The translations under genes and the position numbers were made by a program. Under the pieces are notes generated by a model. It ran no database searches. It saw nothing but the letters and a program-made list of their open reading frames with translations, and was not told the origin of the DNA. From the IMG/VR virus record IMGVR_UViG_3300037310_000496: DNA of 64,000 nucleotides. One strand, 5' to 3'. Source of the stretch: a virus. This document shows, piece after piece, positions 7,499-55,523 of this stretch (positions are counted from its first letter, which is position 1; each line of letters starts with the position of its first letter).

Positions 7499-8833
7499 TC
7501 AAGAATTTGCAATCATCTCCACTAAACCAAGAGGGTTACTAATAACTCCGAGATAGTCAAATATCTTGCTGCTAATGCCTGGAAGCTCAAGGATATTCGA
7601 CCCAACAGTCTGCGGTGACTGGGTACGGAGAAATCCATTGAGGTTGATGTTGATCACCAATCCTGAAGGTACAGAAACTGGTGGCGAATGGGAGTACTGC
7701 ATGTTACCCAATATGAATATGACATCATATGGCAGTGATGCCATATTGGCATATTCATAAACAGTGCACAATAATGGTATTTTTCCGACACGAGCCCTGA
7801 TGCGGTGATATAATTTCATTACATTGATTCCATTGCATTCGATTGTTTGGATCTTGTCATTGAATATCACCATATCAACCTCACCTCCCGATCTTCTGAC
7901 TGCATCATGAAGAACATAACCAAATACCGATGCATGTTTTATTGGATTTCCAGCCATGGTGATTGATCCATTGATTGCAATCAAGTATTTCCCTTTCTTG
8001 ACCTCGAAACTGCTAAATGAATACTTGATAGCCTTTACTATAGCCCGTCTGTAATGAATGGATGCAACAGCCTCATATGCATCAATGAATTCGAAAGGAA
8101 GAACTCCTGATTTTTTGACCTCATCAAGGTTCGATAACTTGCCAACTATCGCCTTACTGTCAACAATGGTTTTTTCAATTAATGGAAGATTCATCAAAAT
8201 ATTTTTGTATGACATAAAAGGGATAGACAACTCTAGATTATTTATAGACCACTTTCGTGAGGATTTGATTGACCCATCCAGGATGCTCTTAAATAGATGG
8301 CTTTGGATATCGTCTTTAGGCTTTGGATGGACAATCTTGATTATGTTTTTCAGGCTAGATCCAGAGATGTTGTCATCAATATAGTCTGATGGTTTTAACT
8401 CATTGAGCCAAATTTCAGTGGCATTCTTGAGAAGCCTAGGCAAGCTGGTTTTGCCCCCATAGTTCTTCGAAAGAAAGTATTTCCATATAGTCAACACATC
8501 ATCGACATCAATAAAGACATTTTTAGCCAAAATTTTTTTCGGGCTGATTTTATCACTCCTGAACATTCTCAATTCAGGATTCATTATATATTTAATGACT
8601 AGAACATATGTCACTGCACGCAAGTTCCAATCATTTCTGGTGTATTTCAATAGATTCCAGAGGAATGGGTAATTGGACTTGTCCTGGGAAAGGGTAGATA
8701 CTAACTTAATAATTCTCTTGATTCTGTCAGGCAATGTCTCGTGATATCCATTATCTTTGATTGCCGTGGATACTGCAGCTACCAGCTCATTTCTTGTATC
8801 CATGTATGGGTATGGTGCCAGTGTATATATCAC
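7499..8833 (-). CDS. rsr: Ro60/TROVE-domain RNA-binding protein
   Basis: YTRNDWNLRAV, SLPRLLK, SLKNIIKIVHPKP (TROVE) plus C-terminal vWA domain with degenerate MIDAS (AINGSITM; ILGNMQ). Confidence 0.85.
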   Translation of the reverse strand: MIYTLAPYPYMDTRNELVAAVSTAIKDNGYHETLPDRIKRIIKLVSTLSQDKSNYPFLWNLLKYTRNDWNLRAVTYVLVIKYIMNPELRMFRSDKISPKKILAKNVFIDVDDVLTIWKYFLSKNYGGKTSLPRLLKNATEIWLNELKPSDYIDDNISGSSLKNIIKIVHPKPKDDIQSHLFKSILDGSIKSSRKWSINNLELSIPFMSYKNILMNLPLIEKTIVDSKAIVGKLSNLDEVKKSGVLPFEFIDAYEAVASIHYRRAIVKAIKYSFSSFEVKKGKYLIAINGSITMAGNPIKHASVFGYVLHDAVRRSGGEVDMVIFNDKIQTIECNGINVMKLYHRIRARVGKIPLLCTVYEYANMASLPYDVIFILGNMQYSHSPPVSVPSGLVININLNGFLRTQSPQTVGSNILELPGISSKIFDYLGVISNPLGLVEMIANS

Positions 8834-8863: not shown

Positions 8864-8906
8864 TATTCGTTTGTTAACTTATAACGTTCAAAACAAAATA
8901 AAAAAT

Positions 8907-9037
8907 GCGGAAACGAGGGATGAATGTTATGTATTTCAGTGTGTCTTAAACCGCCAAACGACCCTACCATACAAGCTGGCAGAGGGAAGGAGTCGAACTT
9001 TCCTTTTCACTGAAAAAACACTCCTATGGAATTCCGC
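8907..9037 (-). ncRNA. yrlA: Y RNA (YrlA-like, circularly permuted tRNA mimic)
   Basis: 5-prime GCGGAA pairs 3-prime UUCCGC; GAGUGUU/AACAUUC; UUUCAGUG/CACUGAAA; then T arm GGAAAG-UUCGACU-CCUUCC, closed acceptor-like stem CUCUGCCA/UGGUAGGG, D arm GUUU-GGCGGUUUA-AGAC; 3-prime U tract; directly upstream of Ro60. Confidence 0.8.
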
Positions 9038-9058
9038 AATGATCATATCGTCCATAAA

Positions 9059-9437: not shown

Positions 9438-9472
9438 TTCATCATTCTCCGTGACATTTAAATATAGCACGA

Positions 9473-9543
9473 TGAATATATCCGGAATCGAACCGGAAAT
9501 GACAACTTATAAGACTGCAGTGATTCCATTTCACTATATATTC
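9473..9543 (-). tRNA. tRNA-Ile(UAU), CCA not encoded
   Basis: Acceptor GAAUAUA/UAUAUUC, A73, D arm GUGA-AAUGGAA-UCAC, anticodon loop CU-UAU-AA (stem has 3 G-U pairs), T arm UCCGG-UUCGAUU-CCGGA; TTTAAATA box at 9570-9577. Confidence 0.85.
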
Positions 9544-9611
9544 ATCAAAGAAACCATATTGCACCTTATTATTTAAATATTTGTAGAGGTAACCATAATA
9601 TGTCAATCATG

Positions 9612-17590: not shown

Positions 17591-20500
17591 TTAATATCCA
17601 TCAAAGAAATTTATCAAAGATTGTTGTTTGGTTGTAATAGATACATCCAACAATTGCTGATATACACTTCCCACGATTGTGACATAATGTCTAAGATCTA
17701 TGTCGTTAATATCATTGACCAGTACACTTGGTATCCATCCATTATAACATTTCACATAGTCGACATGTATACCTTTTCTGATGGCTATATTCTTCCCAAT
17801 AGACTTAAAATGATTCTGGAGATTGTTTGCAGCTTGGACAATAGGTGTATTGTTTTTATAGTGATTTTGGTCATGGCATATAGAAAGGCAATTGCATAAT
17901 TCTTTAGTCAATATTTGAGTAAACTGTAACGATACTAGAGAAATATTATTACAATTCAAAATTGATAGGATTAATTTCTCTTTATTTTTGATGATATATT
18001 CTTCTATTTCTTTATTTGATTTTTCAAATGGGATACCATTGATACATTCTTTAAATGCTTTACGAATCAAAAGAGGAGTAGATTTTTTAATGCCTAAAAA
18101 ACCTTTTATTTTGATTTGATGGTCACTAAACAGAATGTAATTCTTTTTCTTATAGAAAAACATTGCCTTCCAAAATCCCTCGTTTGATACTTCCATACCG
18201 TCTTTTGACATTATTGAAACAATATCTGGTGAAACATTAGATGCAAATACTGAATCAGTATTATGACATTTTAAACCGTCAACTGCAAATGTACCCAATT
18301 TCGTCTCGAAGTCGTAGACATAGTTATCCAATCCTGGGAAATTCCGAAAATAAGTTCCGATTGTAAATTTTCTTAGATTTGAATTTCCGGATGTTTGTGC
18401 AAAAAAATATTTTTTTCTACTATAAGAATTAAAAACGAATTTAAATGCACCAAATTGATTGTGAAAAATACGAAATGATGCCATATGCAAATGGTTTGGA
18501 AAAACCCATCGACCATCGTTGAAATAATATCTTTCAATAAAATTATAATATAGTTTCGCTGCATCATAGGATAAATTAAATATTCCTGGATATGGCTTTA
18601 TTTTTTTGCCTTCTTCATCATATACTTCTCGTCTGACGATATCCCATAATTTATTGAACGATGAAAATGTTATGTCAAATCTTGGACGTGTACCATCTTT
18701 TATATATATGGTGTATGATATGCCCCAATCGTAAAACAATCTTCTGCAATATTCAAGAATGGCAATTATATGTTCCAGATATCGTGTATGCCCTTGTATA
18801 CTACAAAAATGGATATTACGTGAAATAGTCATATTGCGTGATGTTGTGCCACAAAGACTGAATATCGACAACATAAGAATTTGGTTGTCATAATTCCCTT
18901 TTGTTGTAGACAGATAATTGACAATAGGAAAAACCTTACTGGACAATGTTATCGAAGAATTGTTTATGTTCTTCATCAACAATATTGGTGATATTTCATG
19001 ACCATCATCAGTGACTAGAGAATGATCACCAGTGACATCAGCCATACCATGTTCCGTTGATACGCGAAACATGGATTTGCTAGTCAAATGTCTAATAAAA
19101 CCCAATAAAGGATTGAATTGGTCACCATCCCAAATTTCAAGATTTTTTCCTGATAAGTCAATCCTCTCTTTGGTTTCATGATGAGTCAATGCTGTATGTC
19201 CACGTTTGATTAATTGATTCCATAAACCAGTCACATCAATATTCATTATTTCTTTTGTTTCTGCAATACGAATGATGACTGGTGATGACCCAGCTACACT
19301 ATCACCATAATGTACTGTACCACCTTCATCTTGGACTGTTTTTATAAGGTGAGCCAAAGATCTTCGTGATGTTGCAGTGACAGCTTGGGCAATATCTCCA
19401 TTAAAAAACATAAATCCTTCATTTGCCATGCATCCATATACTGCATTCATGACAACCTTGAAAAATTGAGAAATGGAAACAGCCGACTGGCTAAATTCTT
19501 TGTGGATTGGATTGCTTCTAGGTTTGTATATTTTTAGTCGTGCACTCCTAAGAAAAATAAGTGACGCTGGAATAATTCCGACATAATGATTGCATGATTT
19601 TATTGGATATGTCGGTAGATCAATGATTGGACATTCAGAATGTCCACAATTGACTGTTGAAAAACATAGGTTATACTTGATGATATTTGTCGGGTATAAT
19701 GATGCAAAATCCAGGACGGAAATGTTGCGATAAATTCCAGGATTAGCTGTAATAACGTCTGCACCAATGATGTTGTTTTTTGTTTTATTACTATATGGGA
19801 TATGAATATTCCTTTGGTGGAGATATCTAATTAAAAATCCATTCCACCATGTAGTTACTCCACTCCTATTAGCTTTATATAAACTTAGGTCACTAAATCT
19901 CATGATAAAAAACAAAATGAAAACTGGAAAATTGTCATTGTGGGTCGCCAATTTAAATGTCAATTGTGCATCCTTAGCATTATAATAAGCCAATTCGTTT
20001 GAATCGAGTGATTCAATACTTCCCTCGTATAAATATTTGCCTTCCTTAATTACTGCCCTTGCAACAGTATCAAGTTTATTGTTTTCATATCCACCATAAA
20101 CATAATTGGATATGCTTGGATTTGAAAAATATTCATAAAGATCCAATACGATTTTATTTTTCCATTTTATTTTTCTGACTTTCATGAATCCAAAAGTTTC
20201 TTCACTCCAATAAATATTAAATTGATTGTTCAATCCAAATAATTCAATGCGGTGAACAATATATGGTACATCAAACCCATCACCATGATAAAATACGAGA
20301 AAAGGTTGAACCATTTGAGATATATAATTAAGGGATGCAACAAGAAGATCTTTTTCACTTTTGAATATTTCAAGTATAAAATTGTCAGGATTAGCATTGG
20401 CATTGGCATTTTCGATGTTCTTTTGATGGAGTATAAAATTATCAATGGTGAATACTCTAGTGCTATCGTATGTAGTAACAGCTATGGATGTTATCGGAAC

Positions 20501-46289: not shown

Positions 46290-46555
46290 TTGATTCCCAT
46301 CAATCCCGAAAAACTTAAAGATATCGATCCTAATATTTTTGCATGAATGGCATACGAAGATTTCATTTGTGGAAGGTTATATTATAATAAACAGTAAATA
46401 ACATTCGGATGGAACCATGAAAAACATTTGTATGGTCTACCCGAAGGGAGTGCCATTTTATGATGTCTGTAGAGTCTCTCTGTTTATTTTAATATACACC
46501 ATCATTTTTTTGTTGGAAATGCTTGATATATTTTGAACCGCATAGTATGGTTGTC

Positions 46556-46882
46556 GGTTTGATGACTGATTACCCCCGGGACAGCCGGGCACAAGAAAAT
46601 CGACTAAGGAATATATGGAAGAGGGGTCAGGAACTTAGTGCAATAGCGCAAAAGTTCCAATTATTCCTGATACCGTAAAGCAGCCGTACAGTGGCAACTG
46701 TCAAGCCATTTGATTTTGACAAATGAGAAATGGAACAGCCTGACAATCATTTAGTATAGCTGAAGGAAGGCACGGAGAGTAACACCCGTAGCCAATACAC
46801 CCCCCGAGCGAGTGTAGCTAACACCAGTCTGAAGCTCCGGGGAAAGCTAGTAGCTCTAGCAAGGTTCGGTTCAATCATCACC
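46556..46882 (+). ncRNA. Large structured RNA, raiA-motif-like
   Basis: Ends pair (GGU..GAUGA.UGA / UCA.UCAUC.ACC), CCCCG/CGGGG, GGAC/GUCU; ordered blocks GAAAAUCGA, GAUACCGUAAAG, AUGG, GUAGCCAAUAC, GCGAGUGU..ACCAGUC resemble raiA blocks as recalled; U6 tract follows; no ORF. Confidence 0.5.
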
Positions 46883-46933
46883 TTTTTTATCCATATTTTT
46901 TACCGGGCATTTTTATTTACGCCCACTTTTTTA
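46883..46933 (+). terminator. Oligo-T terminator-like tracts after the ncRNA
   Basis: Four T5-T6 runs in 50 nt. Confidence 0.4.
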
Positions 46934-46989
46934 TGTTTACACCTAAAGGTGCATAGACTACCTCAGTAGCCCTAGCACCGGGTGAGAAC

Positions 46990-47238
46990 ATGGTAACACA
47001 AGAAAAATACATAACAACTGGAAAAAGGCTCATTCGAGCCCTTCAGAATTCCGGCATTGGTTATGCCGTAAAATTGTCTAGACAACCATTTATCAGATAT
47101 CAATCTGGTAAATATATAGTGTATGAGGTTCGGTTAAATTCCGGAATTCACAAGTTCCACATAAATGTAACCAATGAAAAAGAAGCCATAATGTGGGAAA
47201 ACCCATATCGGCAACATATTTCGGAACTGAAGGAGTAG
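46990..47238 (+). CDS. Early-region hypothetical protein
   Basis: 82 aa; hairpin GGTGC/GCACC then GGGTGA-4nt-ATG. Confidence 0.6.
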   Translation: MVTQEKYITTGKRLIRALQNSGIGYAVKLSRQPFIRYQSGKYIVYEVRLNSGIHKFHINVTNEKEAIMWENPYRQHISELKE

Positions 47239-47259
47239 AGCTCCTTCAGTTCAGAAACC

Positions 47260-47310
47260 AAACCTAGCCAAGACTAGCTTGGCATGCTGGTGCGACTCCA
47301 GCTAGGTTTA
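47260..47310 (+). ncRNA. Anticodon-less tRNA-like element 1
   Basis: AAACCUA/UAGGUUU acceptor, GCCAAG/CUUGGC hairpin, T arm GCUGG-UGCGACU-CCAGC. Confidence 0.7.
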
Positions 47311-47660
47311 TGAGCCTCTCTCGGAGGCTACTTGAGGACCGTCCGGTAGAAGTCCTGTAGCTCCTACCAGGAACGGTCCTATACGGTGAAATACCCACCG
47401 AGCCATATAGTGAAAACTATATGGACGATGGGTATGGTAGCCCTAGTAGCCGAGAAAAGAGGCTCCAGCTACCGATATTACCTATCGGTAGCATTCTTGC
47501 CCTAGGCATAGGGCAAGAAAAAGAGTCGATGACCTCGACTCTAGGCAGACCCTAGGCGTGACTAGGGTCGGACCAACATACCTCCAGTCATGAAGGAGGT
47601 ATGGACATCACCCACTAGCTATGGGTGATGTCGAGGGTGGAGTAGCCCTATGGGCTACTT
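47311..47660 (+). other. Array of about 11 back-to-back hairpins (non-coding)
   Basis: e.g. TTGCCCTA/TAGGGCAA 47497-47516, GAGTCGA/TCGACTC 47523-47541, CATACCTCC/GGAGGTATG 47577-47603, GACATCACCCA/TGGGTGATGTC 47604-47632, GTAGCCC/GGGCTAC 47642-47658. Confidence 0.85.
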
Positions 47661-47663
47661 CTA

Positions 47664-47706
47664 GTTCCCCCGAAGTAATATGGGAGTGCAACTCTTCCAG
47701 GGGACA
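47664..47706 (+). ncRNA. Anticodon-less tRNA-like element 2
   Basis: GUUCCC/GGGGAC stem, T arm GGGAG-UGCAACU-CUUCC, followed by AUCC and hairpin. Confidence 0.65.
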
Positions 47707-47781
47707 TCCGCCTATAGATCACATATCTATAGGTTTATCAGGCACTCGTCTGCCTGGGAATCCAGACGAGGGGTGAAAAAA

Positions 47782-48114
47782 ATGAACAACATAAATAAAA
47801 CAGAAGATGTCATAATTTTCTGTATGTGCACAAAGGAATGCACCTTTGTGCACGTACAGAAAACTGACTGTCAATGGGACTGTCGTTCCATTGACAGTTT
47901 GACCATCTGTCGGGACCACTCGTATGTCCCGACAGATACACCTTTCTGTCGGGGTTGCAGTCTAAAAATCAAAAAGACTGCCGCCCCGGCAGATCTTCCA
48001 AGTTGCAGAATTAACTGTGACGTACGTTCGATACGTCACAGTGAATTCTGTGACCGGTTCATGAACAACCATGCCAAATTATGGCGTGGTAATGATTACA
48101 TAGGACCTGAGTAA
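47782..48114 (+). CDS. Cys/His-rich small protein
   Basis: ATG 47782 after GGGTGA; about 10 Cys in CxxC-like spacing. Confidence 0.65.
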   Translation: MNNINKTEDVIIFCMCTKECTFVHVQKTDCQWDCRSIDSLTICRDHSYVPTDTPFCRGCSLKIKKTAAPADLPSCRINCDVRSIRHSEFCDRFMNNHAKLWRGNDYIGPE

Positions 48115-48126
48115 TCTCAGGTCTAA

Positions 48127-48176
48127 ACCCCTAGCCTAGATGGAGGCTAGCGGAGGTTCGATTCCTCCTAGGGGTA
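48127..48176 (+). ncRNA. Anticodon-less tRNA-like element 3
   Basis: ACCCCUA/UAGGGGU, GCCU-AGAUGG-AGGC, T arm GGAGG-UUCGAUU-CCUCC, then AUCC. Confidence 0.8.
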
Positions 48177-48254
48177 TCCGATCCATGGGAACATATCCAT
48201 GGATCATAAAGGGTCCCAGCCTACCCTGGAGACTAGGCTGGAAAGGTGAGTGCA

Positions 48255-48710
48255 ATGAAAGTGATTTTTAGATCGGCATCTCTGCCGTTTTTCTCGTGGC
48301 TTATAGCCACGAAAAAAGAACGGGCAGAGATAGCCCGCCGTGGCGGGTATAGCCACGGCGAAAAATTCGAAGCCTCCACAGGTGACTTTGTCACCTGTGG
48401 TGGCAACCGATACGGAAGAACCGGTACATATACCGGTTCGTTCCGGGGAATAACTGGAAGTAACGGTCTAATTGACCAATACTTCCAGTACAAGACCCTC
48501 CCGGGTAAAATTACCCGGGAGTGGAAATATCTCCCCAAGGAGGAGAAAAACCTCCTCCTTGAGGAATTTTCACAGTTAGTGATCATGGCGATCACTAGCT
48601 GCGAAACCGAAGGGGTTAATAGACTCCTTCGGTTAAAAATTCCACGAGGAAGAATCCTCGTGAAGGGTGAGCACCACAAGAATTGTGGTGCTTGCACCGT
48701 TTGGAAATAG
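48255..48710 (+). CDS. Early-region hypothetical protein
   Basis: ATG 48255 after AGGTGA; C-terminal HHKNCGAC. Confidence 0.65.
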   Translation: MKVIFRSASLPFFSWLIATKKERAEIARRGGYSHGEKFEASTGDFVTCGGNRYGRTGTYTGSFRGITGSNGLIDQYFQYKTLPGKITREWKYLPKEEKNLLLEEFSQLVIMAITSCETEGVNRLLRLKIPRGRILVKGEHHKNCGACTVWK

Positions 48711-48724
48711 AAAACCTATTTCCT

Positions 48725-48779
48725 ATCTCCCGCCCAGAGTAGGCTGGGCATTGATGGAGTTCGAATCTCCAGGGAGACA
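48725..48779 (+). ncRNA. Anticodon-less tRNA-like element 4
   Basis: UCUCCC/GGGAGA, GCCCAG/CUGGGC, T arm UGGAG-UUCGAAU-CUCCA, then AUCC. Confidence 0.8.
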
Positions 48780-48851
48780 TCCCCCATAGGTTTTCACCTA
48801 TGGGTATCAATGGTACTAGCCTGCCATGGAAACTAGGCTAGAGGTGGAAAA

Positions 48852-49181
48852 ATGAGTGAAACGAAAATTCCAGACGATCTAGATCATCTAGATCATCTAG
48901 ATGATCTAGATAATATAGATGATCTAGATGATCTAGATGATCTAGATGATTTAGATGATCTAGATCTAGACTCTCATATTCATGAGAGTCTAGAAGAGGT
49001 GGAGACACCTGATCTCCACATACTCAACGGGGACATGTACTGTCCCTGTCATTGTCCCGCCACTTCATGTGGCGGGACTGAGCGGGATGAAAACCCGCAC
49101 AACCATTTCCCCCAAGAGGGGGAATTGGAAGCAGGGGATTCCTGCTTCTATTGTAATATGAAAGAGCCCTGCGAGTGCTAG
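48852..49181 (+). CDS. Acidic-repeat, Cys/His-rich small protein
   Basis: (DDL)n N-terminus then YCPCHC..C, CFYC..PCEC; AGGTGG SD. Confidence 0.65.
   Translation: MSETKIPDDLDHLDHLDDLDNIDDLDDLDDLDDLDDLDLDSHIHESLEEVETPDLHILNGDMYCPCHCPATSCGGTERDENPHNHFPQEGELEAGDSCFYCNMKEPCEC
48873..48962 (+). repeat. 9-bp coding repeat x10 (GATGATCTA, DDL)
   Basis: Ten consecutive units with minor variants. Confidence 0.9.
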
Positions 49182-49226
49182 AGCTCTTTCGAAAAAATCA
49201 CCTAGGATTTATCTAGGTGATTTTAC

Positions 49227-49278
49227 ATTTTCTGCCCAGGAAAGGCTGGGCTTGGGTGTTCGACTCACCCAGAAAATA
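49227..49278 (+). ncRNA. Anticodon-less tRNA-like element 5
   Basis: AUUUUCU/AGAAAAU, GCCCAG-GAAAGG-CUGGGC, T arm GGGUG-UUCGACU-CACCC, then AUCC. Confidence 0.8.
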
Positions 49279-49279
49279 T

Positions 49280-49510
49280 CCGATCCATAAGAATCTAGGA
49301 GGCGTTTTACGCTTCCTTGATATCAAGAGTGACCTTAGGGTTATTCTTGGAACTCGGCGAGTATATCTCGCCGACTGGATAGCGGAAAATGAGTTAGCCT
49401 GCCAATGGCAGGCTGACTGTCTATAAAAATAAATATGTCACCTAGTATAGCTAGGTGACATATTTCATGAATGATTTGGATGATATGGACAATTGTTCAT
49501 ATCATCCATA
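49280..49510 (+). other. Second hairpin array (non-coding)
   Basis: TCGGCGAG/CTCGCCGA 49354-49374, 15-bp perfect IR 49431-49465, GGATGATATG/CATATCATCC 49478-49507 and others. Confidence 0.8.
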
Positions 49511-49529
49511 ACCATAAGAAGGTGAAAAA

Positions 49530-50087
49530 ATGAGTGTAAGCGAAAAAACTTATCGAATCTTCACGCTCAAAGGACGAGCAGACTGGCTCGTCGAAGGAGC
49601 TGAAGTAGAGGAATTCATTCTTTCCAACGGCACCGCCATCACGGCAGTTGCCGTTGGAGAGACTGGAAGAGGGAGAAGCCTAGGACTTCTCCCGATCAAC
49701 GCTAACAAGGGTAGATTTGTTACCCTTGTAACCATTGGAACAACCAAGGCGGGGCATCCTCGCCTGTTTGTCTCCAATGGAAAACCAACAGACGACGAAG
49801 CAATCGTCGTCTGGAAACTAGAGGGAGGCTACCGAGGTAGCCTTTCCTATACTCCCAATCCCCCTGGGCGAGTGCTAGCCCAGGGGAACACCGCCCAAGG
49901 GGATGCTGGGAGGATGGGATCTAGCTTACAGCTAGTTACCATCCTCCCCATTTCCACCCCAGTGAGGGTGGAATATTCTGGTCGGCTCTACGGAGCCGAC
50001 CCAGCTCATACGATTGAACTGCATCCAGGTGGAGTCCTGGATGTAGCAACGGACTTAGAGATCCAAGTCCGTAATGCAACCGATTGA
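49530..50087 (+). CDS. Conserved phage hypothetical protein
   Basis: VAVGETGRGR..., LAQG.TAQGDAGRMGS motif; AGGTGA SD. Confidence 0.7.
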   Translation: MSVSEKTYRIFTLKGRADWLVEGAEVEEFILSNGTAITAVAVGETGRGRSLGLLPINANKGRFVTLVTIGTTKAGHPRLFVSNGKPTDDEAIVVWKLEGGYRGSLSYTPNPPGRVLAQGNTAQGDAGRMGSSLQLVTILPISTPVRVEYSGRLYGADPAHTIELHPGGVLDVATDLEIQVRNATD

Positions 50088-50180
50088 ACCCATTTTTCTT
50101 ATTATCTATTTATCATTTTTTATTTCCATCTTTTTTTATTGTGTCATTGGGATATTCCAGAAGGATATCCCAATGACACA

Positions 50181-50221
50181 ATCCCCAATAGTGACAAGGA
50201 GTGCAAATCTCCTAGGGGATA
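50181..50221 (+). ncRNA. Anticodon-less tRNA-like element 6
   Basis: AUCCCC/GGGGAU, T arm AGGAG-UGCAAAU-CUCCU, then AUCC. Confidence 0.75.
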
Positions 50222-50286
50222 TCCACCAATGGATATTTTTCCATTGGTCAAAAGGATACTAGCCTATCCTGGACTCTAGGCTAGAG

Positions 50287-50511
50287 GTGAACGAATGGAT
50301 ACCATTATGGTATCTTGAGCGTCTATATACGCTCAAAAACAGCGTTTATGTAATCTATTCTTTTGAATATCGAAACATACTCGACAGGAGAATGGAAAAA
50401 ATGAGTATGGAAATTACCCGTACTCCCGCCAGTACCATCTGGCATTTGGAAATTGCTTCCATGTCAGATGGTGTGATTTCCCAACGGAAGCTGGAAAAAT
50501 CGAAAAGATGA
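50287..50511 (+). CDS. Possible small or decayed ORF
   Basis: The SD-positioned ATG (50295) opens only a 7-codon frame; the 74-aa frame starts at GTG inside the SD. Confidence 0.3.
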   Translation: MNEWIPLWYLERLYTLKNSVYVIYSFEYRNILDRRMEKMSMEITRTPASTIWHLEIASMSDGVISQRKLEKSKR

Positions 50512-50563
50512 CTAGTCTATGACTGTCGTCTAGCATCTAGCTAGGTGCTAGACAACAACATAA

Positions 50564-50603
50564 ATCCCTACTAGTATTAGGAGTGCAAGTCTCCTGAGGG
50601 ATG
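50564..50603 (+). ncRNA. Anticodon-less tRNA-like element 7
   Basis: AUCCCU/AGGGAU, T arm AGGAG-UGCAAGU-CUCCU, then GUCC. Confidence 0.75.
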
Positions 50604-50686
50604 TCCACCTATGAAAAACCCAATATAGGTTTCCATAGGCAATAAGGATATCCGCCTATCCAGGAATCCAGGCGGAAGGTGACAAT

Positions 50687-51835
50687 ATGACCAGACAACC
50701 AAATTTCAGCTTTGTCCAGCTGAAAAATGCATCGGCGTCGAAGTTCAACAATTCGGCGTCTATTTCATTGATGGACAAAGCCTCTGAATTTGAGTCGGAA
50801 ATGGAGTCCATCCATTTCCGACCTCAGGAAATGGAGTTTGAAGGTCGGGCGACCAATTTTGGTCGCCTAACCGATAGAAGTATCGGCGACCTTCTTTCCA
50901 AGTCGACCATAGACGTCAAGAAAGACGATTACGATCGACTTGGGACTCTCATGAACGGAGAAATTGGCAGGCTCCTTTTGGTAGCGGCATCCAGCCGCCC
51001 CACCAAGGAGCAGCACAAGCTCCTAAGATACGATGGCGAAATAAAAGCCATCGTAGGGACTAACTACCCCTCTCCTAGGGAGATGGGGTTTTCTGTCCCC
51101 AGATTGGTCAAGGAAATCAATTCCTTGACAACAGTGCACAAGATGCACTCAGTCTGGGAACCGAACACTGGCATCCAGGGTGCCCAGATGATCCTCCACA
51201 TAGAAGATCACCCAGTCCTGGGGCAACCCATGGGCTATGGAATTGACATCTTCAATTCCATCTATGGCGGAGCAAGTCTCCGCATAAATCTGACCACCCT
51301 GAACCTGGTCTGCACCAATGGTGCGACCAGCAGGTCTCCATTGACAGGAGTGGAAATTGTCCACTCCTCCACTGCAAATGTGGCGAAAGGATTGATTCGC
51401 CTACTTAGCAGCAGTGGAAATTCCGACTTGAACATTGTTCGGCAGCTAGAATCTGCTGCCATGGTCAACGGAAGTCGCAGACTAGTTCGAGAGGAAAACA
51501 TCCCCTCTTTCCACACCCAAATTGCCAAAGCAATTTTGGGCAAGACCAAGATCAATGTGGCAAATGATCGTGACACGATCACCCAAGCCACCCAAACAAA
51601 AATTGATGTTGATCTTGGGATCAGCAAACTAGTCAATGGGAAATCCCTCACAAAAAGTGAGGGTGAACAAGTAAAAGAAATCATGGTGGTAGATGACACC
51701 ATCCCCCATGATTTTCTTTACACTAGATATGGATTGGCGGCAGCCATATCCCGGCTAGCCAATCTGCCAACTATTGGAGCATCCCGATCTCGGGATCTCC
51801 AAATTTTGTCACAGGAGACTATGATAGCCACGTAG
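50687..51835 (+). CDS. DUF932-like protein
   Basis: LRYDGEIKAIVGTNY, IFNSIYGGASLRI...LVCTNGA; AGGTGA SD. Confidence 0.75.
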   Translation: MTRQPNFSFVQLKNASASKFNNSASISLMDKASEFESEMESIHFRPQEMEFEGRATNFGRLTDRSIGDLLSKSTIDVKKDDYDRLGTLMNGEIGRLLLVAASSRPTKEQHKLLRYDGEIKAIVGTNYPSPREMGFSVPRLVKEINSLTTVHKMHSVWEPNTGIQGAQMILHIEDHPVLGQPMGYGIDIFNSIYGGASLRINLTTLNLVCTNGATSRSPLTGVEIVHSSTANVAKGLIRLLSSSGNSDLNIVRQLESAAMVNGSRRLVREENIPSFHTQIAKAILGKTKINVANDRDTITQATQTKIDVDLGISKLVNGKSLTKSEGEQVKEIMVVDDTIPHDFLYTRYGLAAAISRLANLPTIGASRSRDLQILSQETMIAT

Positions 51836-51863
51836 TTCACTAGTACATGATCGTGGTAAAAAC

Positions 51864-51923
51864 GATCATGTATACGATGATGTATACGATGATGTATACG
51901 ATGATGTATACGATGATGTATTG
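51864..51923. repeat. 12-bp tandem repeat x5 (GATGATGTATAC)
   Basis: Five near-identical units just after the DUF932 stop. Confidence 0.9.
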
Positions 51924-52104
51924 ATACATGATCGCATACATGATCGTTTCATGTCGGTCATGTATCCATGCATGACCGATGCAAAAATGAACCGAAGGGC
52001 TAGTCCGCCCACAAGGTTGAAGATGTGCATTCACCCACACATCGCCAGACACTCACTCACCATCTGGCAACCTGGGTAAGGGACTACAGTCCCAAGGTGA
52101 ACAC

Positions 52105-52863
52105 ATGAAAATGGAAGACCTCGCAAATCTCCTGAAGACCGAAAGTATTCAAGAGATTGGAATGGAGATTCTGAAGAAATTCATTGACCGTCACTCGAAA
52201 GTAACGATAAAAGAATTTCTCAACGATTTTGTCGGGATTTCAGCAATTCGCTGTGACGAGTTGCTGGACTCTCTCAATCGTGAAACTGGTATTTTTCCTG
52301 ATAAGTCATACCAAAAAAACATCAGTGCCGATAATAAAAATATACAAAACGGCGCCGAATTGGTAGCGAAAAAGTTGCCTATTGTTGAAAAACCATTCAT
52401 CACCGAACCGGTGGAATGGTTAACAATTGTCAGTGAAACCACTGATGAAGTCTCCGGTGTGTTGACGGATGAAAAAACCGTCAACATAGAAACTGACGAC
52501 AAAAAGGAAAAAAACCGACCAATAACTGGTCGGTATATAAAGAAAAATACCGAGAATAAACCCATAATCCATGAAGAGCCAAAAGGCGCCATGGTATACG
52601 AGCTGAAATATTTAATTGAAATGGCTCGATCCGAATATCCCATCCAAAGCGGGAATTGGATAAAAATATCATGGGAAAATGGGAAAAAATACAGTAAGCC
52701 ATTCTGTAAATTGACAAACGAGAATGGTGAACAATGGTTAGAAGTGGTGGATCGTATCTACCACGAAGATGGTAAAAGAGAAGGGAAGGTTTATATTCCC
52801 TTGCCCGGGAAAATATTTTTCCCAATAAGTGGAAATGAAGCCATCCGTATAATGGTTGTGTAG
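52105..52863 (+). CDS. Early-region hypothetical protein
   Basis: 252 aa; GGGACT/AGTCCC hairpin then AGGTGA-4nt-ATG. Confidence 0.65.
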   Translation: MKMEDLANLLKTESIQEIGMEILKKFIDRHSKVTIKEFLNDFVGISAIRCDELLDSLNRETGIFPDKSYQKNISADNKNIQNGAELVAKKLPIVEKPFITEPVEWLTIVSETTDEVSGVLTDEKTVNIETDDKKEKNRPITGRYIKKNTENKPIIHEEPKGAMVYELKYLIEMARSEYPIQSGNWIKISWENGKKYSKPFCKLTNENGEQWLEVVDRIYHEDGKREGKVYIPLPGKIFFPISGNEAIRIMVV

Positions 52864-53377
52864 GGTTATTCCCTACATTTAACCAAAAGTGTAAAATCAC
52901 AAAACACATTTTACGATTTTACATGGAATCTAAATAAAGGTGTTTTTCACATAACCCTTATATATCCCGCTTATATACCATTTATATACAAAAACGGCTA
53001 TTTAAAGGGTATTTAAACCATGAAATTTTTATCATTTTTTTGATCATTATTTCCCACGGGTTTTTATAATAACCATTCCAAATTTACTGGAACCAGTAAG
53101 AAATGCCTTTAAAAAAAAAACACTGAAAAAAAGGAAAGGTAACCATAAAACTATATTCCAGATCTTACGAAAAGGTTTGTTTGTAGTTTGAAAAGCATCA
53201 AATGCACGTCCACCCACGTAATATATGTATACGTAGTATATTCAACATGGGGTGGACGTGAACCAATCCTGTAAAAAACCCCACAAATCAGTATTGACCA
53301 TGGTATGACTTTTTATTCCACCATGGTTTAAATATAAGGTACTCTATAGTGGGTTAGGAGTTTACGTTTCTCCTGAT

Positions 53378-53971
53378 TTGGTGTACTGTAATATTACAGC
53401 ACAACCGAAAAACGTAGGGAACATGTATGTGAAAAAAAGAAAACCTCAACACCTAAACAAAACCAAACATAAGCCGCTGTACCCAACAAATGAGAATATA
53501 ACTTCCTGGAAGAGGGAATTGACGTTCGCCAATTCCTCCCCAGCAAGAAATATCCAAATTGTTAAGTTCTGGACTTGGTGGAATGTAGCAAAGGCAATGG
53601 GGTTCATTCCCAAGGACTTATCGTTCTTGGTGGAGGATGCCATTGTTCACGACATTCCCATCAAAGTATCAGCTCCAAAGGCTGACATCATCTACAATGA
53701 TGGAATAGTATGCTTGATCAGAACGCAGGTCGCACATGATCTAGACAGTCAGGGAGCATATGACCGTCTTGATCCGGAAGTTCATGGTGCCACTTGGATA
53801 TCCCAGTTTGGATTATACCTATGGGTGGTCACTGATCCGTCTGTCCTGGCAGAATGGAGGAAATGGAAATCCAAAACCCATAATTGGCAGTGGTGGCAGC
53901 AACAAGAGCAACGGAAACAGCAACAGCAACAGCAACAGCAACAACAACAACGACAGCAAAGACAACCATAA
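53378..53971 (+). CDS. Hypothetical protein with poly-Gln C-terminus
   Basis: KADIIY..CLIRTQ weakly PD-(D/E)XK-like; CAG/CAA run 53896-53968; true start may be ATG about 53424. Confidence 0.55.
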   Translation: MVYCNITAQPKNVGNMYVKKRKPQHLNKTKHKPLYPTNENITSWKRELTFANSSPARNIQIVKFWTWWNVAKAMGFIPKDLSFLVEDAIVHDIPIKVSAPKADIIYNDGIVCLIRTQVAHDLDSQGAYDRLDPEVHGATWISQFGLYLWVVTDPSVLAEWRKWKSKTHNWQWWQQQEQRKQQQQQQQQQQQRQQRQP

Positions 53972-53985
53972 AAAAAGGTGGTAGT

Positions 53986-54378
53986 ATGTACAGAAAAAAG
54001 AAGACAATGAGTCAAGAAATGACTCAACTAAAACTGATCCTCGGATATAAACATCTATCCGAAGTGATCACTGGCACTGCAGGCAAAAGCATGTCTGCAG
54101 TTTCAATGATGGTAATCAGAAAACTGATTGTCATGGAAAATATCATTCGAAAAAATGACTGGTATATCATCAAATGGACACGAAGAAAACATTTTGTGTT
54201 CACTCAAGCCAATGGGATTGACCTTGTCCTATATATCCATCCCGAACTGGTTGATGAGGGATATGTCATTGTTCTCCATCGACAAAAATACACGGTCAGC
54301 CAAATTTTGCTGGTTGAGGATCTTTATAATGAATACCATGAGCTGGTGATGAAATACAGCGGAACCTGGATGGAGTAG
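53986..54378 (+). CDS. Hypothetical protein
   Basis: ATG 53986 after AGGTGG. Confidence 0.6.
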   Translation: MYRKKKTMSQEMTQLKLILGYKHLSEVITGTAGKSMSAVSMMVIRKLIVMENIIRKNDWYIIKWTRRKHFVFTQANGIDLVLYIHPELVDEGYVIVLHRQKYTVSQILLVEDLYNEYHELVMKYSGTWME

Positions 54379-54541
54379 GCATTCCATCCAAGGAGCTCCG
54401 ACAATAGACTTCGCCATATAGAAGCCTAAACTAAAAAACTGAACCTCCGTCCATTCATGTTCATATTCTTTGTTTTTATTTTTGTTTTTATTTCTATTTT
54501 TATTTTTATATCCAGATCGTTGAATATGTCTCTGAAGGACG

Positions 54542-54558
54542 TAAATATTTAAATATTC
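54542..54558. promoter_or_regulatory. Palindromic TATA element identical to the one at 8852-8868
   Basis: TAAATATTTAAATATTC, exact 17-mer match. Confidence 0.55.
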
Positions 54559-54562
54559 AGTA

Positions 54563-54602
54563 GTCCTCAATAGTATTGGGAGTGCAAGTCTCCTAGAGGA
54601 TG
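54563..54602 (+). ncRNA. Anticodon-less tRNA-like element 8
   Basis: GUCCUC/GAGGAU, T arm GGGAG-UGCAAGU-CUCCU, then GUCC and hairpin GCCUUUG/CAAAGGC. Confidence 0.75.
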
Positions 54603-54718
54603 TCCGCCTTTGGCAAATTATATATTCAAAGGCAGGAATGGCGACGGTTGCCTTAAACCGGATGGTGAAAACATAATGAATGAAAGACATTCAAAAATTC
54701 TTAGGAGTGTGAAGCAAA

Positions 54719-54916
54719 ATGAGCATGAACAGAAAAAAAGACAAGAAAAATAAATATGCTGGCAACATAACTGTTGCCGAGGAAATGTCAGCCACAAAAT
54801 GGCTGGTATGGAAATGGGACGGCAAAAAGTATGCCGATCCCCAGATAGCCCATGTTGATGGACACATATCCCAGATGACATGGGTGGACTTTGGCACGGA
54901 AGAGGAAAAGATGTGA
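54719..54916 (+). CDS. Small hypothetical protein
   Basis: 65 aa, coupled to next ORF. Confidence 0.5.
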   Translation: MSMNRKKDKKNKYAGNITVAEEMSATKWLVWKWDGKKYADPQIAHVDGHISQMTWVDFGTEEEKM

Positions 54917-55161
54917 AAGATCTCATAACCCTGCAGAAAGACAGGATCATGGCAACCATGGATGAATTGTGCCAAATGATCCAGCGTCTTGAGGGACATG
55001 AGGGACATGGAGAAATTGAGTCATGGTGCATAACCATGATGAAGGAGATGGTGGATAGTCACCACGATCTCCTCAATAGGCTGGCAATCCTGGAGGATAT
55101 CCGGGATGACCGGAAGATTGAAGGATTGGGACATGTGCCACATCTACCACATCTACCGTGA
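54880..55161 (+). CDS. Small helical hypothetical protein
   Basis: Coiled-coil-like; start uncertain. Confidence 0.45.
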   Translation: MGGLWHGRGKDVKDLITLQKDRIMATMDELCQMIQRLEGHEGHGEIESWCITMMKEMVDSHHDLLNRLAILEDIRDDRKIEGLGHVPHLPHLP

Positions 55162-55291
55162 TGCATGTCCAATGACCACATCAACATGGTGTGGTCGAAA
55201 GGGTCATTCGATTGAAGTGCCGAATGGGACCATCCGGATATGCCAGGATTGCCTCAAGAAATCAGGTGGATCCAAGGCGTTTCGGAACTGA
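55106..55291 (+). CDS. Small Zn-finger protein
   Basis: CH...C.....CG......ICQDC. Confidence 0.45.
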   Translation: MTGRLKDWDMCHIYHIYRDACPMTTSTWCGRKGHSIEVPNGTIRICQDCLKKSGGSKAFRN

Positions 55292-55523
55292 TGGTCTGAA
55301 GCTGAACCATCGTACAGATATTTCAATGGTCATAATTGACCACCAATTCACATGATGTGGATGGTAAGTCACATATTTGCATATGTGGTCTGTATTGATG
55401 TGAAATCAATATCCTTGACGATATGGCTATAATTGGTGCCATATCATCAAAAACAGTCTGGAAAGTTGGCAATGTTGTCAACTATTCTGACATGGACTAT
55501 ATCAAAAAAAGAGTAAAGAAAAC

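Follow-up and report, generated by a model that had tools for sequence, protein, structure and literature searches.

Eight tRNA-Like Elements Without an Anticodon Arm in the Leaders of Small Viral Genes: Candidate t-Elements of a Freshwater Tailed Virus

The DNA considered here, 64,000 nucleotides of the IMG/VR record IMGVR_UViG_3300037310_000496 (the window, which makes up most of a tailed-virus contig of ~69 kb recovered from a freshwater metagenome), carries eight elements of 40-55 nt, e1 to e8, all located within 7.4 kb and all on the plus strand, that mimic the top half of a transfer RNA (tRNA). Each of them folds alone into an acceptor stem of seven positions stacked directly on a 5-bp stem with a 7-nt loop of the form U[U/G]C[G/A]ANU. 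The reading that we favor, and to which we give an even chance, is that these are viral t-elements, i.e., cis-acting tRNA mimics placed in leaders of small genes, orphan and presumably early, where host ribonuclease (RNase) P and/or RNase Z would cut. Eight such mimics had been proposed in a first-pass annotation made from the sequence alone, and all of them were found, at the same positions and with the architecture described, by folding, by a descriptor scan and by a covariance model.

Folds, Classes and the Elbow

Several lines of evidence suggest that the elements are real RNA folds. The minimum free energy structure equals the centroid, or nearly so, in all eight, with z-scores of -1.3 to -3.3. 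When the whole window was scanned with a descriptor that asked for an acceptor of 7 nt forming six pairs or more and, after 1-31 nt, a stem of 5 bp with the loop T[GT]C[GA]A.T, the two stems being directly stacked, exactly the eight elements were recovered on the plus strand and none on the minus strand, versus 0.83 matches expected over both strands from Markov simulations. In the hairpin-rich region that surrounds them, generic stacked-stem architectures are found on both strands (33 on plus, 41 on minus), the T-loop motif occurring in seven of the former versus none of the latter. In an alignment of the eight elements by MAFFT (A1), the paired columns are gap-free and the 7 + 5 stack carries no indel in any copy; 94.8% of the cells pair, versus 72% in shuffles and 33-60% when the partners are slid, and both-sided changes are seen in 11 of the 12 pairs, the observed values being matched by none of 500 shuffles. 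The earlier proposal that stem sequences differ among the copies with pairing kept is thus well supported. The covariance model that it had called for (R1) scores the eight elements at 41.6-54.7 bits, the next match in the window scoring 13.2. Invariant in all eight are G53-C61, U54, C56, and A58, features of the tRNA T arm, position 55 being U in three and G in five, and four G.U pairs occur across the elements, which, along with the asymmetric T loop, points to RNA read from the plus strand.

Two designs can be told apart. Class I is represented by e3 (48127-48175), e4 (48725-48778), and e5 (49227-49277), which possess the loop UUCGANU and a hairpin of 4-6 bp starting from position 8, resembling the D arm, whose loop ends in GG. 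The acceptor stem is of 7 bp in e3 and e5 and of 6 bp, with A.C at 1:72, in e4, and the D-like hairpin is of 4 bp in e3 (loop AGAUGG) and of 6 bp in e4 (AGUAGG) and e5 (GAAAGG). The T arm of e3 is GGAGG-UUCGAUU-CCUCC, and the T loops of e4 and e5 are UUCGAAU and UUCGACU, respectively; the scores are 51.6 bits for e3, 51.4 bits for e4 (z -3.24), and 54.7 bits for e5 (z -3.32). All three are followed by AUCC (48176-48179, 48779-48782, and 49278-49281, respectively). Element e1 (47260-47309; 7-bp acceptor stem; 50.0 bits; z -3.29) has a hairpin like theirs, of 6 bp, but with AG at the end of the loop (ACUAG) and with the T loop UGCGACU. In class II, represented by e2 (47664-47705), e6 (50181-50220), e7 (50564-50602), and e8 (54563-54601), there is no internal hairpin, a linker of 8-11 nt with (U/A)AGU is found instead, the T loop is UGCAANU, and the acceptor stem is of 6 bp, with the innermost position never Watson-Crick. 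This position is C.A (7:66) in e2, which has an 11-nt linker with AAGU and the T loop UGCAACU (41.6 bits), A.A in e6 (UGCAAAU; 49.7 bits), A.G in e7 (UGCAAGU; 44.7 bits), and A.A in e8 (UGCAAGU; G.U at 1:72; 42.0 bits; z -2.55), the linkers of the latter three containing UAGU. Class II elements are followed either by AUCC (e2, 47706-47709; e6, 50221-50224) or by GUCC (e7, 50603-50606; e8, 54602-54605). RUCC, with R for a purine, hence stands directly 3' of seven of the eight, e1 having AUGA, and a purine at position 73 followed by U74 is found in every one. The grouping into two classes and the presence of RUCC after seven copies had both been noted in the first-pass annotation, and both stand, with UUCGANU in three copies, UGCGACU in one, and UGCAANU in four.

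As to a possible identity with true tRNAs, this is ruled out. There is no anticodon arm, as had been recognized from the start, the internal hairpin has a loop of 5-6 nt or, in class II, is missing, and both ARAGORN, which calls none of the eight and in the entire window recognizes only a tRNA-Ile (9471-9544), and Rfam are negative, the best score with the Rfam tRNA model (RF00005) being 24.5 bits for e3, versus a gathering score of 29, with the other elements unscored. What is found instead is an acceptor-like stem coaxial with a T arm inside a longer, non-tRNA transcript, by which t-elements are defined, the elements being intergenic, in the sense orientation, and between genes led by Shine-Dalgarno (SD) sequences. 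Other candidate identities have also been rejected. A tRNA-derived attP site is ruled out by the presence of eight copies, each with its own complementary 5' acceptor strand, and by the lack of any integrase family in the ~60 open reading frames (ORFs) scanned. A YrlA-type Y RNA is ruled out as the ends form the acceptor stem itself, with no extra terminal helix, and as no Y RNA family is present in the Rfam list at E<=10. Neither mascRNA (RF01684) nor the viral 3' tRNA-like structure (RF00233) was matched in Rfam searches of 46500-55500 at E<=10 and of the whole window at the gathering score.

The new point of this analysis is the covariation between the D-like loop, or the linker, and T-loop position 55. 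GG accompanies U55 in all three cases (e3-e5), and AG accompanies G55 in all five, the base after AG in the G55 elements being U or C, and GG being absent from them. A virus whose large terminase (TerL) shares 40% identity with that of the window (locus L003:180-2300) possesses an ordinary tRNA gene array with encoded CCA, of 12 genes as called by ARAGORN or 13 as called by Rfam, and in the first eleven ARAGORN-called tRNAs, which the count covers, U55 is found with D-loop GG in four of four, and the UGCAANU T loop (G55) is found without GG, with AG instead, in six of seven, so that the rule holds in 10 of 11. Full tRNAs with a UGCAA T loop are also present in metagenome loci L012, L019, and L029. 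In canonical tRNAs, the elbow is held by the contacts G18-psi55 and G19-C56, and the elbow and the stack of the acceptor stem and T arm make up the part of tRNA recognized by RNase P, by RNase Z, through its flexible arm, and by the CCA-adding enzyme (PMC4810234). As the mimics follow the same rule as the true tRNAs of a related virus, a tRNA elbow is probably kept in them, including the 40-nt class II form, and they appear to share ancestry, or else selective constraints, with the tRNAs of this viral lineage. The G55/A18 variant of the elbow, common to mimics and to real viral tRNAs, is also a separate small finding on tRNA structure.

Leaders and Transcription Units

The elements are embedded in a series of plus-strand genes. 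Gene g0 (46990-47238) is followed by e1, and e1 by an ORF-free array of about ten back-to-back hairpins (47311-47660, 350 nt), after which come e2 with gA (47782-48114), e3 with gB (48255-48710), e4 with gC (48852-49181), and e5 with gD (49530-50087). An oligo-T/TATA region, an 18-bp hairpin, e6, and short ORFs are next, followed by e7 with gF (50687-51835), then by gG (52105-52863), which has no mimic in front, by two more genes, by a second oligo-T/TATA region, and finally by e8 and short ORFs. In a codon-frame test, the annotated frames of g0, gA-gD, gF, and gG proved the best, and no coding frame was recognized in the array (47311-47660). The proteins encoded by gA-gD and by gF (382 amino acids) are orphans in homology searches, and an AGGTGA-type SD is positioned 5-8 nt before the ATG of each of gA-gD. 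The mimics sit 70-250 nt upstream of SD-led genes, e1 having no gene directly behind it.

A cassette proposed earlier, consisting of a hairpin, the mimic, RUCC, two further hairpins (A and B), the AGGTGA-type SD, and ATG, is complete at e2, e3, e4, e6, and e7, and is modified at the other three, e1 being followed by the 350-nt array, e5 by a longer, multi-hairpin leader of 248 nt to gD, and e8 by a weaker second hairpin. A perfect hairpin of 8-18 bp precedes seven of the eight elements by 0-10 nt, the upstream stop codon being inside three of these hairpins. Before e1, it is a perfect 12-bp hairpin (47224-47252) that has the stop codon of g0 in its loop and ends 7 nt upstream, and those before e2 to e7 are at 47641-47659, 48104-48123, 48703-48723, 49194-49224, 50138-50182, and 50528-50553. 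Hairpin A (47711-47733, 48180-48205, 48783-48804, 50225-50248, 50608-50639, and 54606-54633) is enclosed, behind e3, e5, e6, and e7, and partly (3 bp) behind e8, by pairing of the UCC of RUCC with a GGR just 3' of the hairpin. Hairpin B (47745-47770, 48216-48241, 48816-48841, 50259-50284, and 50651-50676), with a CCWGG-type loop, ends immediately 5' of the SD, its stem being nearly identical in the leaders of e3, e4, and e6 and covarying in those of e2 and e7, a pattern that suggests either a sequence-specific binding site or a recent duplication of the leader.

Oligo-T runs are nearly absent from 46990-50092 (two are found inside gB) and cluster at 50093-50137, 52943-53065, and 54473-54507. 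The lack of such runs suggests that e1-e5 are parts of a single transcript. The cluster that follows gD (50093-50137, with runs T5, T6, and T7) includes a TATA-like box at 50107, and, considering oligo-T termination in archaea, we infer a terminator and a promoter here. Five T5 runs and TATA-like boxes at 54505 and 54548 (together 54473-54555) immediately precede e8. By their positions just after such regions, e6 and e8 would each head a transcription unit of their own. The proposal that the mimics punctuate an early polycistronic RNA thus has strong support for its structural premise but would not extend to e6 and e8.

Other features of this part of the window are as follows. The spacer between gF and gG contains a 12-nt tandem repeat of 4-5 units (51862-51921) with palindromes on either side, and an SD but no mimic. 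A segment at 52940-53070 is AT-rich and ORF-free, with several runs of T and, close to one another, three boxes of the CTTATATA type, and may represent promoters, terminators, or an origin. The ORF at 53378-53971 encodes a terminal poly-Q tract, from a CAG/CAA repeat at 53895-53960.

Processing of Leaders versus Alternative Roles

If the elements are viral t-elements, host RNase P would cut at +1, leaving the upstream RNA with an end just after the hairpin, in some cases the one with the stop codon, and/or RNase Z would cut after the purine discriminator R73, next to the conserved U74. The latter cut would produce a uniform 5'-monophosphate UCC... end of the messenger RNA (mRNA), held in a helix around hairpin A, with hairpin B and the SD further downstream, and the mini-tRNAs of 40-55 nt thus released could be extended by the CCA-adding enzyme. 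The function shared by all eight would be a uniform maturation of 5' leaders, from which the separation of cistrons (e1-e5, e7) would follow; this role is preferred over punctuation because e6 and e8 appear to head their own transcription units. Cutting by RNase P and RNase Z is the simplest explanation as the part retained is the one read by end-processing enzymes, and the part lost is the one for decoding. As to the origin, these were probably viral tRNA genes co-transcribed with early genes, whose decoding parts were lost later. The only true tRNA gene of the virus, by ARAGORN and Rfam, the tRNA-Ile(UAU) on the minus strand at 9471-9544 (T loop UUCGAUU), does not encode CCA, and so the host must possess CCA-independent 3' processing; its trailer begins A-UCG, i.e., with UC after the first A, and U74 is likewise present in 8/8 elements. 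Uridines just after the discriminator are known to stimulate Bacillus RNase Z.

The locus is, at the same time, saturated with palindromes. Counting stems of 8 bp or more, perfect palindromic hairpins number 11-24 per kb in the 47-51 kb interval, 6 per kb in the next kilobase, and ~0.5 per kb elsewhere in the window, and at 47.2-52.0 kb, excluding a tandem repeat in gC, 77 hairpins are counted (7-18 bp stems, loops of 3-14 nt), one per ~50-60 nt. They are also present within coding sequence, in gA, gB, gC, gD, and gF, their stems end abruptly, and G.U is not in excess over A.C at the stem ends (17 vs 13). The mimics differ from this background in being branched or bulged, in possessing G.U and non-canonical positions, and in carrying the T-loop motif on one strand only. 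However, as hairpins are everywhere in the region, a hairpin adjoining a mimic is not specific evidence, and the suggestion that hairpins protect the ends of the mature mRNAs is weakened by their being ubiquitous, strand-symmetric, and found in coding sequence as well. The tandem repeat in gC (48872-48970), of ~11 units of 9 nt, GATCTAGAT-like, is itself palindromic and encodes a repeat of the D-L-D type; it gives spurious microRNA matches in Rfam, and one contig of a metagenome run (X1) has a 3-nt insertion there.

A number of observations weigh against leader processing. A stable perfect hairpin ends 0-4 nt before +1 in five of the eight, leaving almost no single-stranded 5' leader for RNase P. 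Two of the elements, e6 and e8, are not between co-transcribed cistrons, and gG, like the genes at 53.4-54.4 kb, is without any element. The dense, strand-symmetric palindromes show that another force, possibly acting on DNA, is shaping the locus, their strand symmetry hinting at either a process at the level of DNA or an RNA strategy of a very unusual kind. The covariation all comes from paralogues within one genome. No element was found within 10 kb in TerL relatives (40-47% identity), and scanning with the class II pattern produced no match in viral contigs and 21 matches in metagenome contigs, none of which is a mini-tRNA. Searches of sequencing runs for this DNA recovered only two DNA runs, both freshwater metagenomes, and no RNA run, and the contigs of these two runs show, at the locus, neither ends nor variants.

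Among the alternatives, one that we consider unlikely is that the elements are genes for trans-acting mini-tRNAs, set free from the operon and probably CCA-tailed, by which some factor of the host or of the virus that recognizes the tRNA half made up of acceptor, T arm, and elbow would be titrated or occupied. This factor could be a defense toxin directed at the acceptor end, the CCA-adding enzyme, an enzyme of T-loop modification, or the TROVE (Ro60-like) protein of the virus. The existence of eight copies with differing acceptor stems and a constant elbow fits such a role, as does e1, which precedes no gene, and the virus does encode a TROVE-domain protein (E 5e-9 to PDB TROVE chains), bacterial partners of Ro60, the YrlA-type Y RNAs, being themselves tRNA mimics (PMC4201824). 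The elements, however, have no Ro-binding helix, and no Y RNA is matched in Rfam; the original idea of decoys for anticodon nucleases is also unlikely, given the missing anticodon loop. The strict placement before SD-led genes and the conserved RUCC/hairpin leader speak for a role in cis, and since mini-tRNAs would need the same processing, a trans role would extend the reading of the elements as t-elements rather than replace it. We assign a similarly low probability to the elements being uncleaved modules of 5' untranslated regions, either a cap-like fold that blocks 5'-to-3' exonucleases or a platform for a translation factor or the ribosome. This would agree with the fixed distance to the SD, the common architecture of the leaders, the position of e6 and e8 near predicted 5' ends of primary transcripts, and the tight hairpins abutting +1, unfavorable for RNase P, but a generic stabilizer would need neither the tRNA invariants, nor the exact 7 + 5 stack, nor the D-loop/T-loop covariation, ordinary hairpins are already plentiful in the region, and e1 has no downstream gene.

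Action at the DNA level, with the elements as cassette boundaries recognized by a recombinase or as folded single-stranded DNA, part of the process that makes the palindromes, seems improbable to us. It would account for the local abundance of perfect palindromes (11-24 versus ~0.5 per kb), for their presence in coding sequence, and for their lack of G.U bias (17 vs 13), and the flanked genes are orphans, with structure kept while sequence varies, as in integron attC sites. On the other hand, the mimics are strand-asymmetric (the T-loop motif in 7 versus 0 in the region) and have G.U pairs as well as positions that are not Watson-Crick, the ~60 ORFs scanned include no recognized integrase or other recombinase, and a covariation of tertiary contacts that is common to real tRNAs makes sense only in RNA; integron-like sites are rejected on the same grounds. 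Least probable of all, in our view, is that the elements are functionless, decaying relics of a viral tRNA array that lost the anticodon arms. The related virus with the TerL of 40% identity does have at least 12 ordinary tRNA genes, with the same unusual UGCAA T loops, but decay should result in stem-breaking changes, and the elements instead show pairing in 94.8% of cells and compensatory changes in 11/12 pairs, all eight being without the same part and in the same position relative to genes.

A more elaborate scenario, which is speculative and to which we attach little weight, combines several of these roles. The virus would have converted a former tRNA array into a system of both RNA processing and decoys, with all early messages matured at an anticodon-less mini-tRNA by tRNA enzymes of the host, and the eight CCA-tailed mini-tRNAs with the A18-G55 elbow would act in trans, saturating or diverting a host factor that reads the acceptor or the elbow or feeding the viral TROVE/Ro60 protein, and the palindrome-saturated messages would resist single-strand RNases or RNA-guided defense.

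The Virus, Its Relatives and Known Systems

As to the nature of the virus, the window codes for a large terminase, an HK97-type capsid protein, baseplate J, a family B DNA polymerase (PolB), a helicase, and a C5 methylase. An archaeal host is probable, judging from four features taken together. One is the C-terminus of PolB, QQSLINFF / ...KQQSLINFFDGY, a canonical PCNA-interacting motif (PIP box; window 17603-17626, minus strand), which argues for a PCNA-using, i.e., archaeal, host. The others are TATA-like boxes (TTTAWAW) 21-50 nt before start codons (8 observed versus ~0.9 expected, and 0 in flanking bins), the CCA-less tRNA gene, and an E2F/TrmB-type winged helix in one of the proteins of the window. 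Searches of species genomes for TerL relatives returned only matches of 22-23%, in prophages of Actinomycetes, and name no host, an Atlas search with the C5 methylase was uninformative in this respect, and a phage collection gave no DNA match and only distant protein matches. The TROVE-domain ORF is on the minus strand at 7499-8833, with the similarity to the PDB TROVE chains over residues 19-192 and no Pfam match at E 0.01, and a T-arm-like motif, G-UUCGACU-C, is present at ~8998 (minus strand) just upstream of it (~8900-9040), where a Y RNA had been proposed in the first-pass annotation. The segment 46300-55000 is found as identical sequence, without base differences, in contigs of two freshwater metagenome runs (X1 and X2) of different studies. 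A short 'joint' between 50651 and 54955 in the run contigs was set aside, as it rests on matches of 18-21 nt to a foreign contig.

Relatives of the locus are few. The gF protein has no homologue but itself among 5.8 billion proteins, and neither gF nor TerL has a relative in the viral contig collection. Matches of R1 in loci L002-L004 are parts of true tRNA genes, and the single one in L001 is inside coding sequence. Among the 21 metagenome matches of the class II pattern, three are full tRNAs with UGCAA T loops and 18 are without mini-tRNA architecture; of the latter, a three-contig locus that was inspected is antisense within a 913-aa ORF, and the rest look like chance matches. A literature search brought up no description of elements of this kind from phages or archaeal viruses.

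Should the predicted cuts take place, no clearer case would be known to date of a prokaryotic virus relying on tRNA-shaped signals, rather than on real tRNAs or RNase III sites, for the maturation of a whole set of messages, and the principle of organellar tRNA punctuation and t-elements would extend to viruses, probably archaeal ones. From eight natural variants of two minimal designs, the requirements of archaeal RNase P and RNase Z could then be read off. The class II design, of 40 nt and lacking a D stem but having a linker that seemingly keeps the elbow contact, comes close to a minimal substrate and might be turned into a small, portable tag for RNA processing in archaeal genetics, a use to which the t-elements of Haloferax have already been put.

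Among known systems, one parallel is presented by the t-elements of plant mitochondria (wheat, Arabidopsis), which define the 5' and 3' ends of mRNAs (PMC1920247). Like the viral elements, they are tRNA-like folds that do not decode, keep the T arm, and lie within precursors of mRNAs. The boundaries of the plant elements match 5' or 3' termini of mRNAs, and once cut out, the piece can acquire C/A that is not templated (PMC1920247). However, they are organellar, approximately cloverleaf-sized (74 nt for cox1), and scattered singly, and their cleavage is demonstrated, while the viral elements are of 40-55 nt, lack the anticodon arm, form two classes, and number eight in 7.4 kb, with cleavage only predicted. 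Another parallel is the t-element of Haloferax volcanii upstream of the 5S ribosomal RNA (rRNA), also tRNA-like and part of an archaeal transcript, which is cut in vivo by RNase P and tRNase Z and is portable, being cut even when transplanted around a CRISPR RNA (PMC4326828, PMC4946936). That element is single, cellular, and located in an rRNA operon, whereas the viral ones precede protein-coding genes, and the two are likened by structure, not by sequence. In the tRNA punctuation of animal mitochondria and in the tRNA-mRNA co-transcripts of phages, tRNA-shaped units between cistrons similarly represent sites for RNase P and RNase Z, but these are functional tRNAs, whereas the viral elements are devoid of the decoding half, and two of them, e6 and e8, are placed elsewhere than between cistrons of one transcript. 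Signals of the mascRNA/MALAT1 type (RF01684) also recruit RNase P and RNase Z through tRNA mimicry for the formation of an end, releasing a small tRNA-like RNA, but they are eukaryotic, cloverleaf-like, and positioned at 3' ends, and the viral elements have no Rfam match. The YrlA-type Y RNAs (PMC4201824) are likewise anticodon-less mimics of the acceptor, T, and D parts, found where the genome also encodes a Ro60/TROVE protein, as that of this virus does, but they possess a Ro-binding terminal helix, a closed acceptor-like stem, and a permuted order, whereas the viral elements are open-ended and have no such helix. What is particular to this locus is the presence of eight copies in 7.4 kb, in two classes, with an elbow covariation common to real viral tRNAs and with a common RUCC/hairpin leader.

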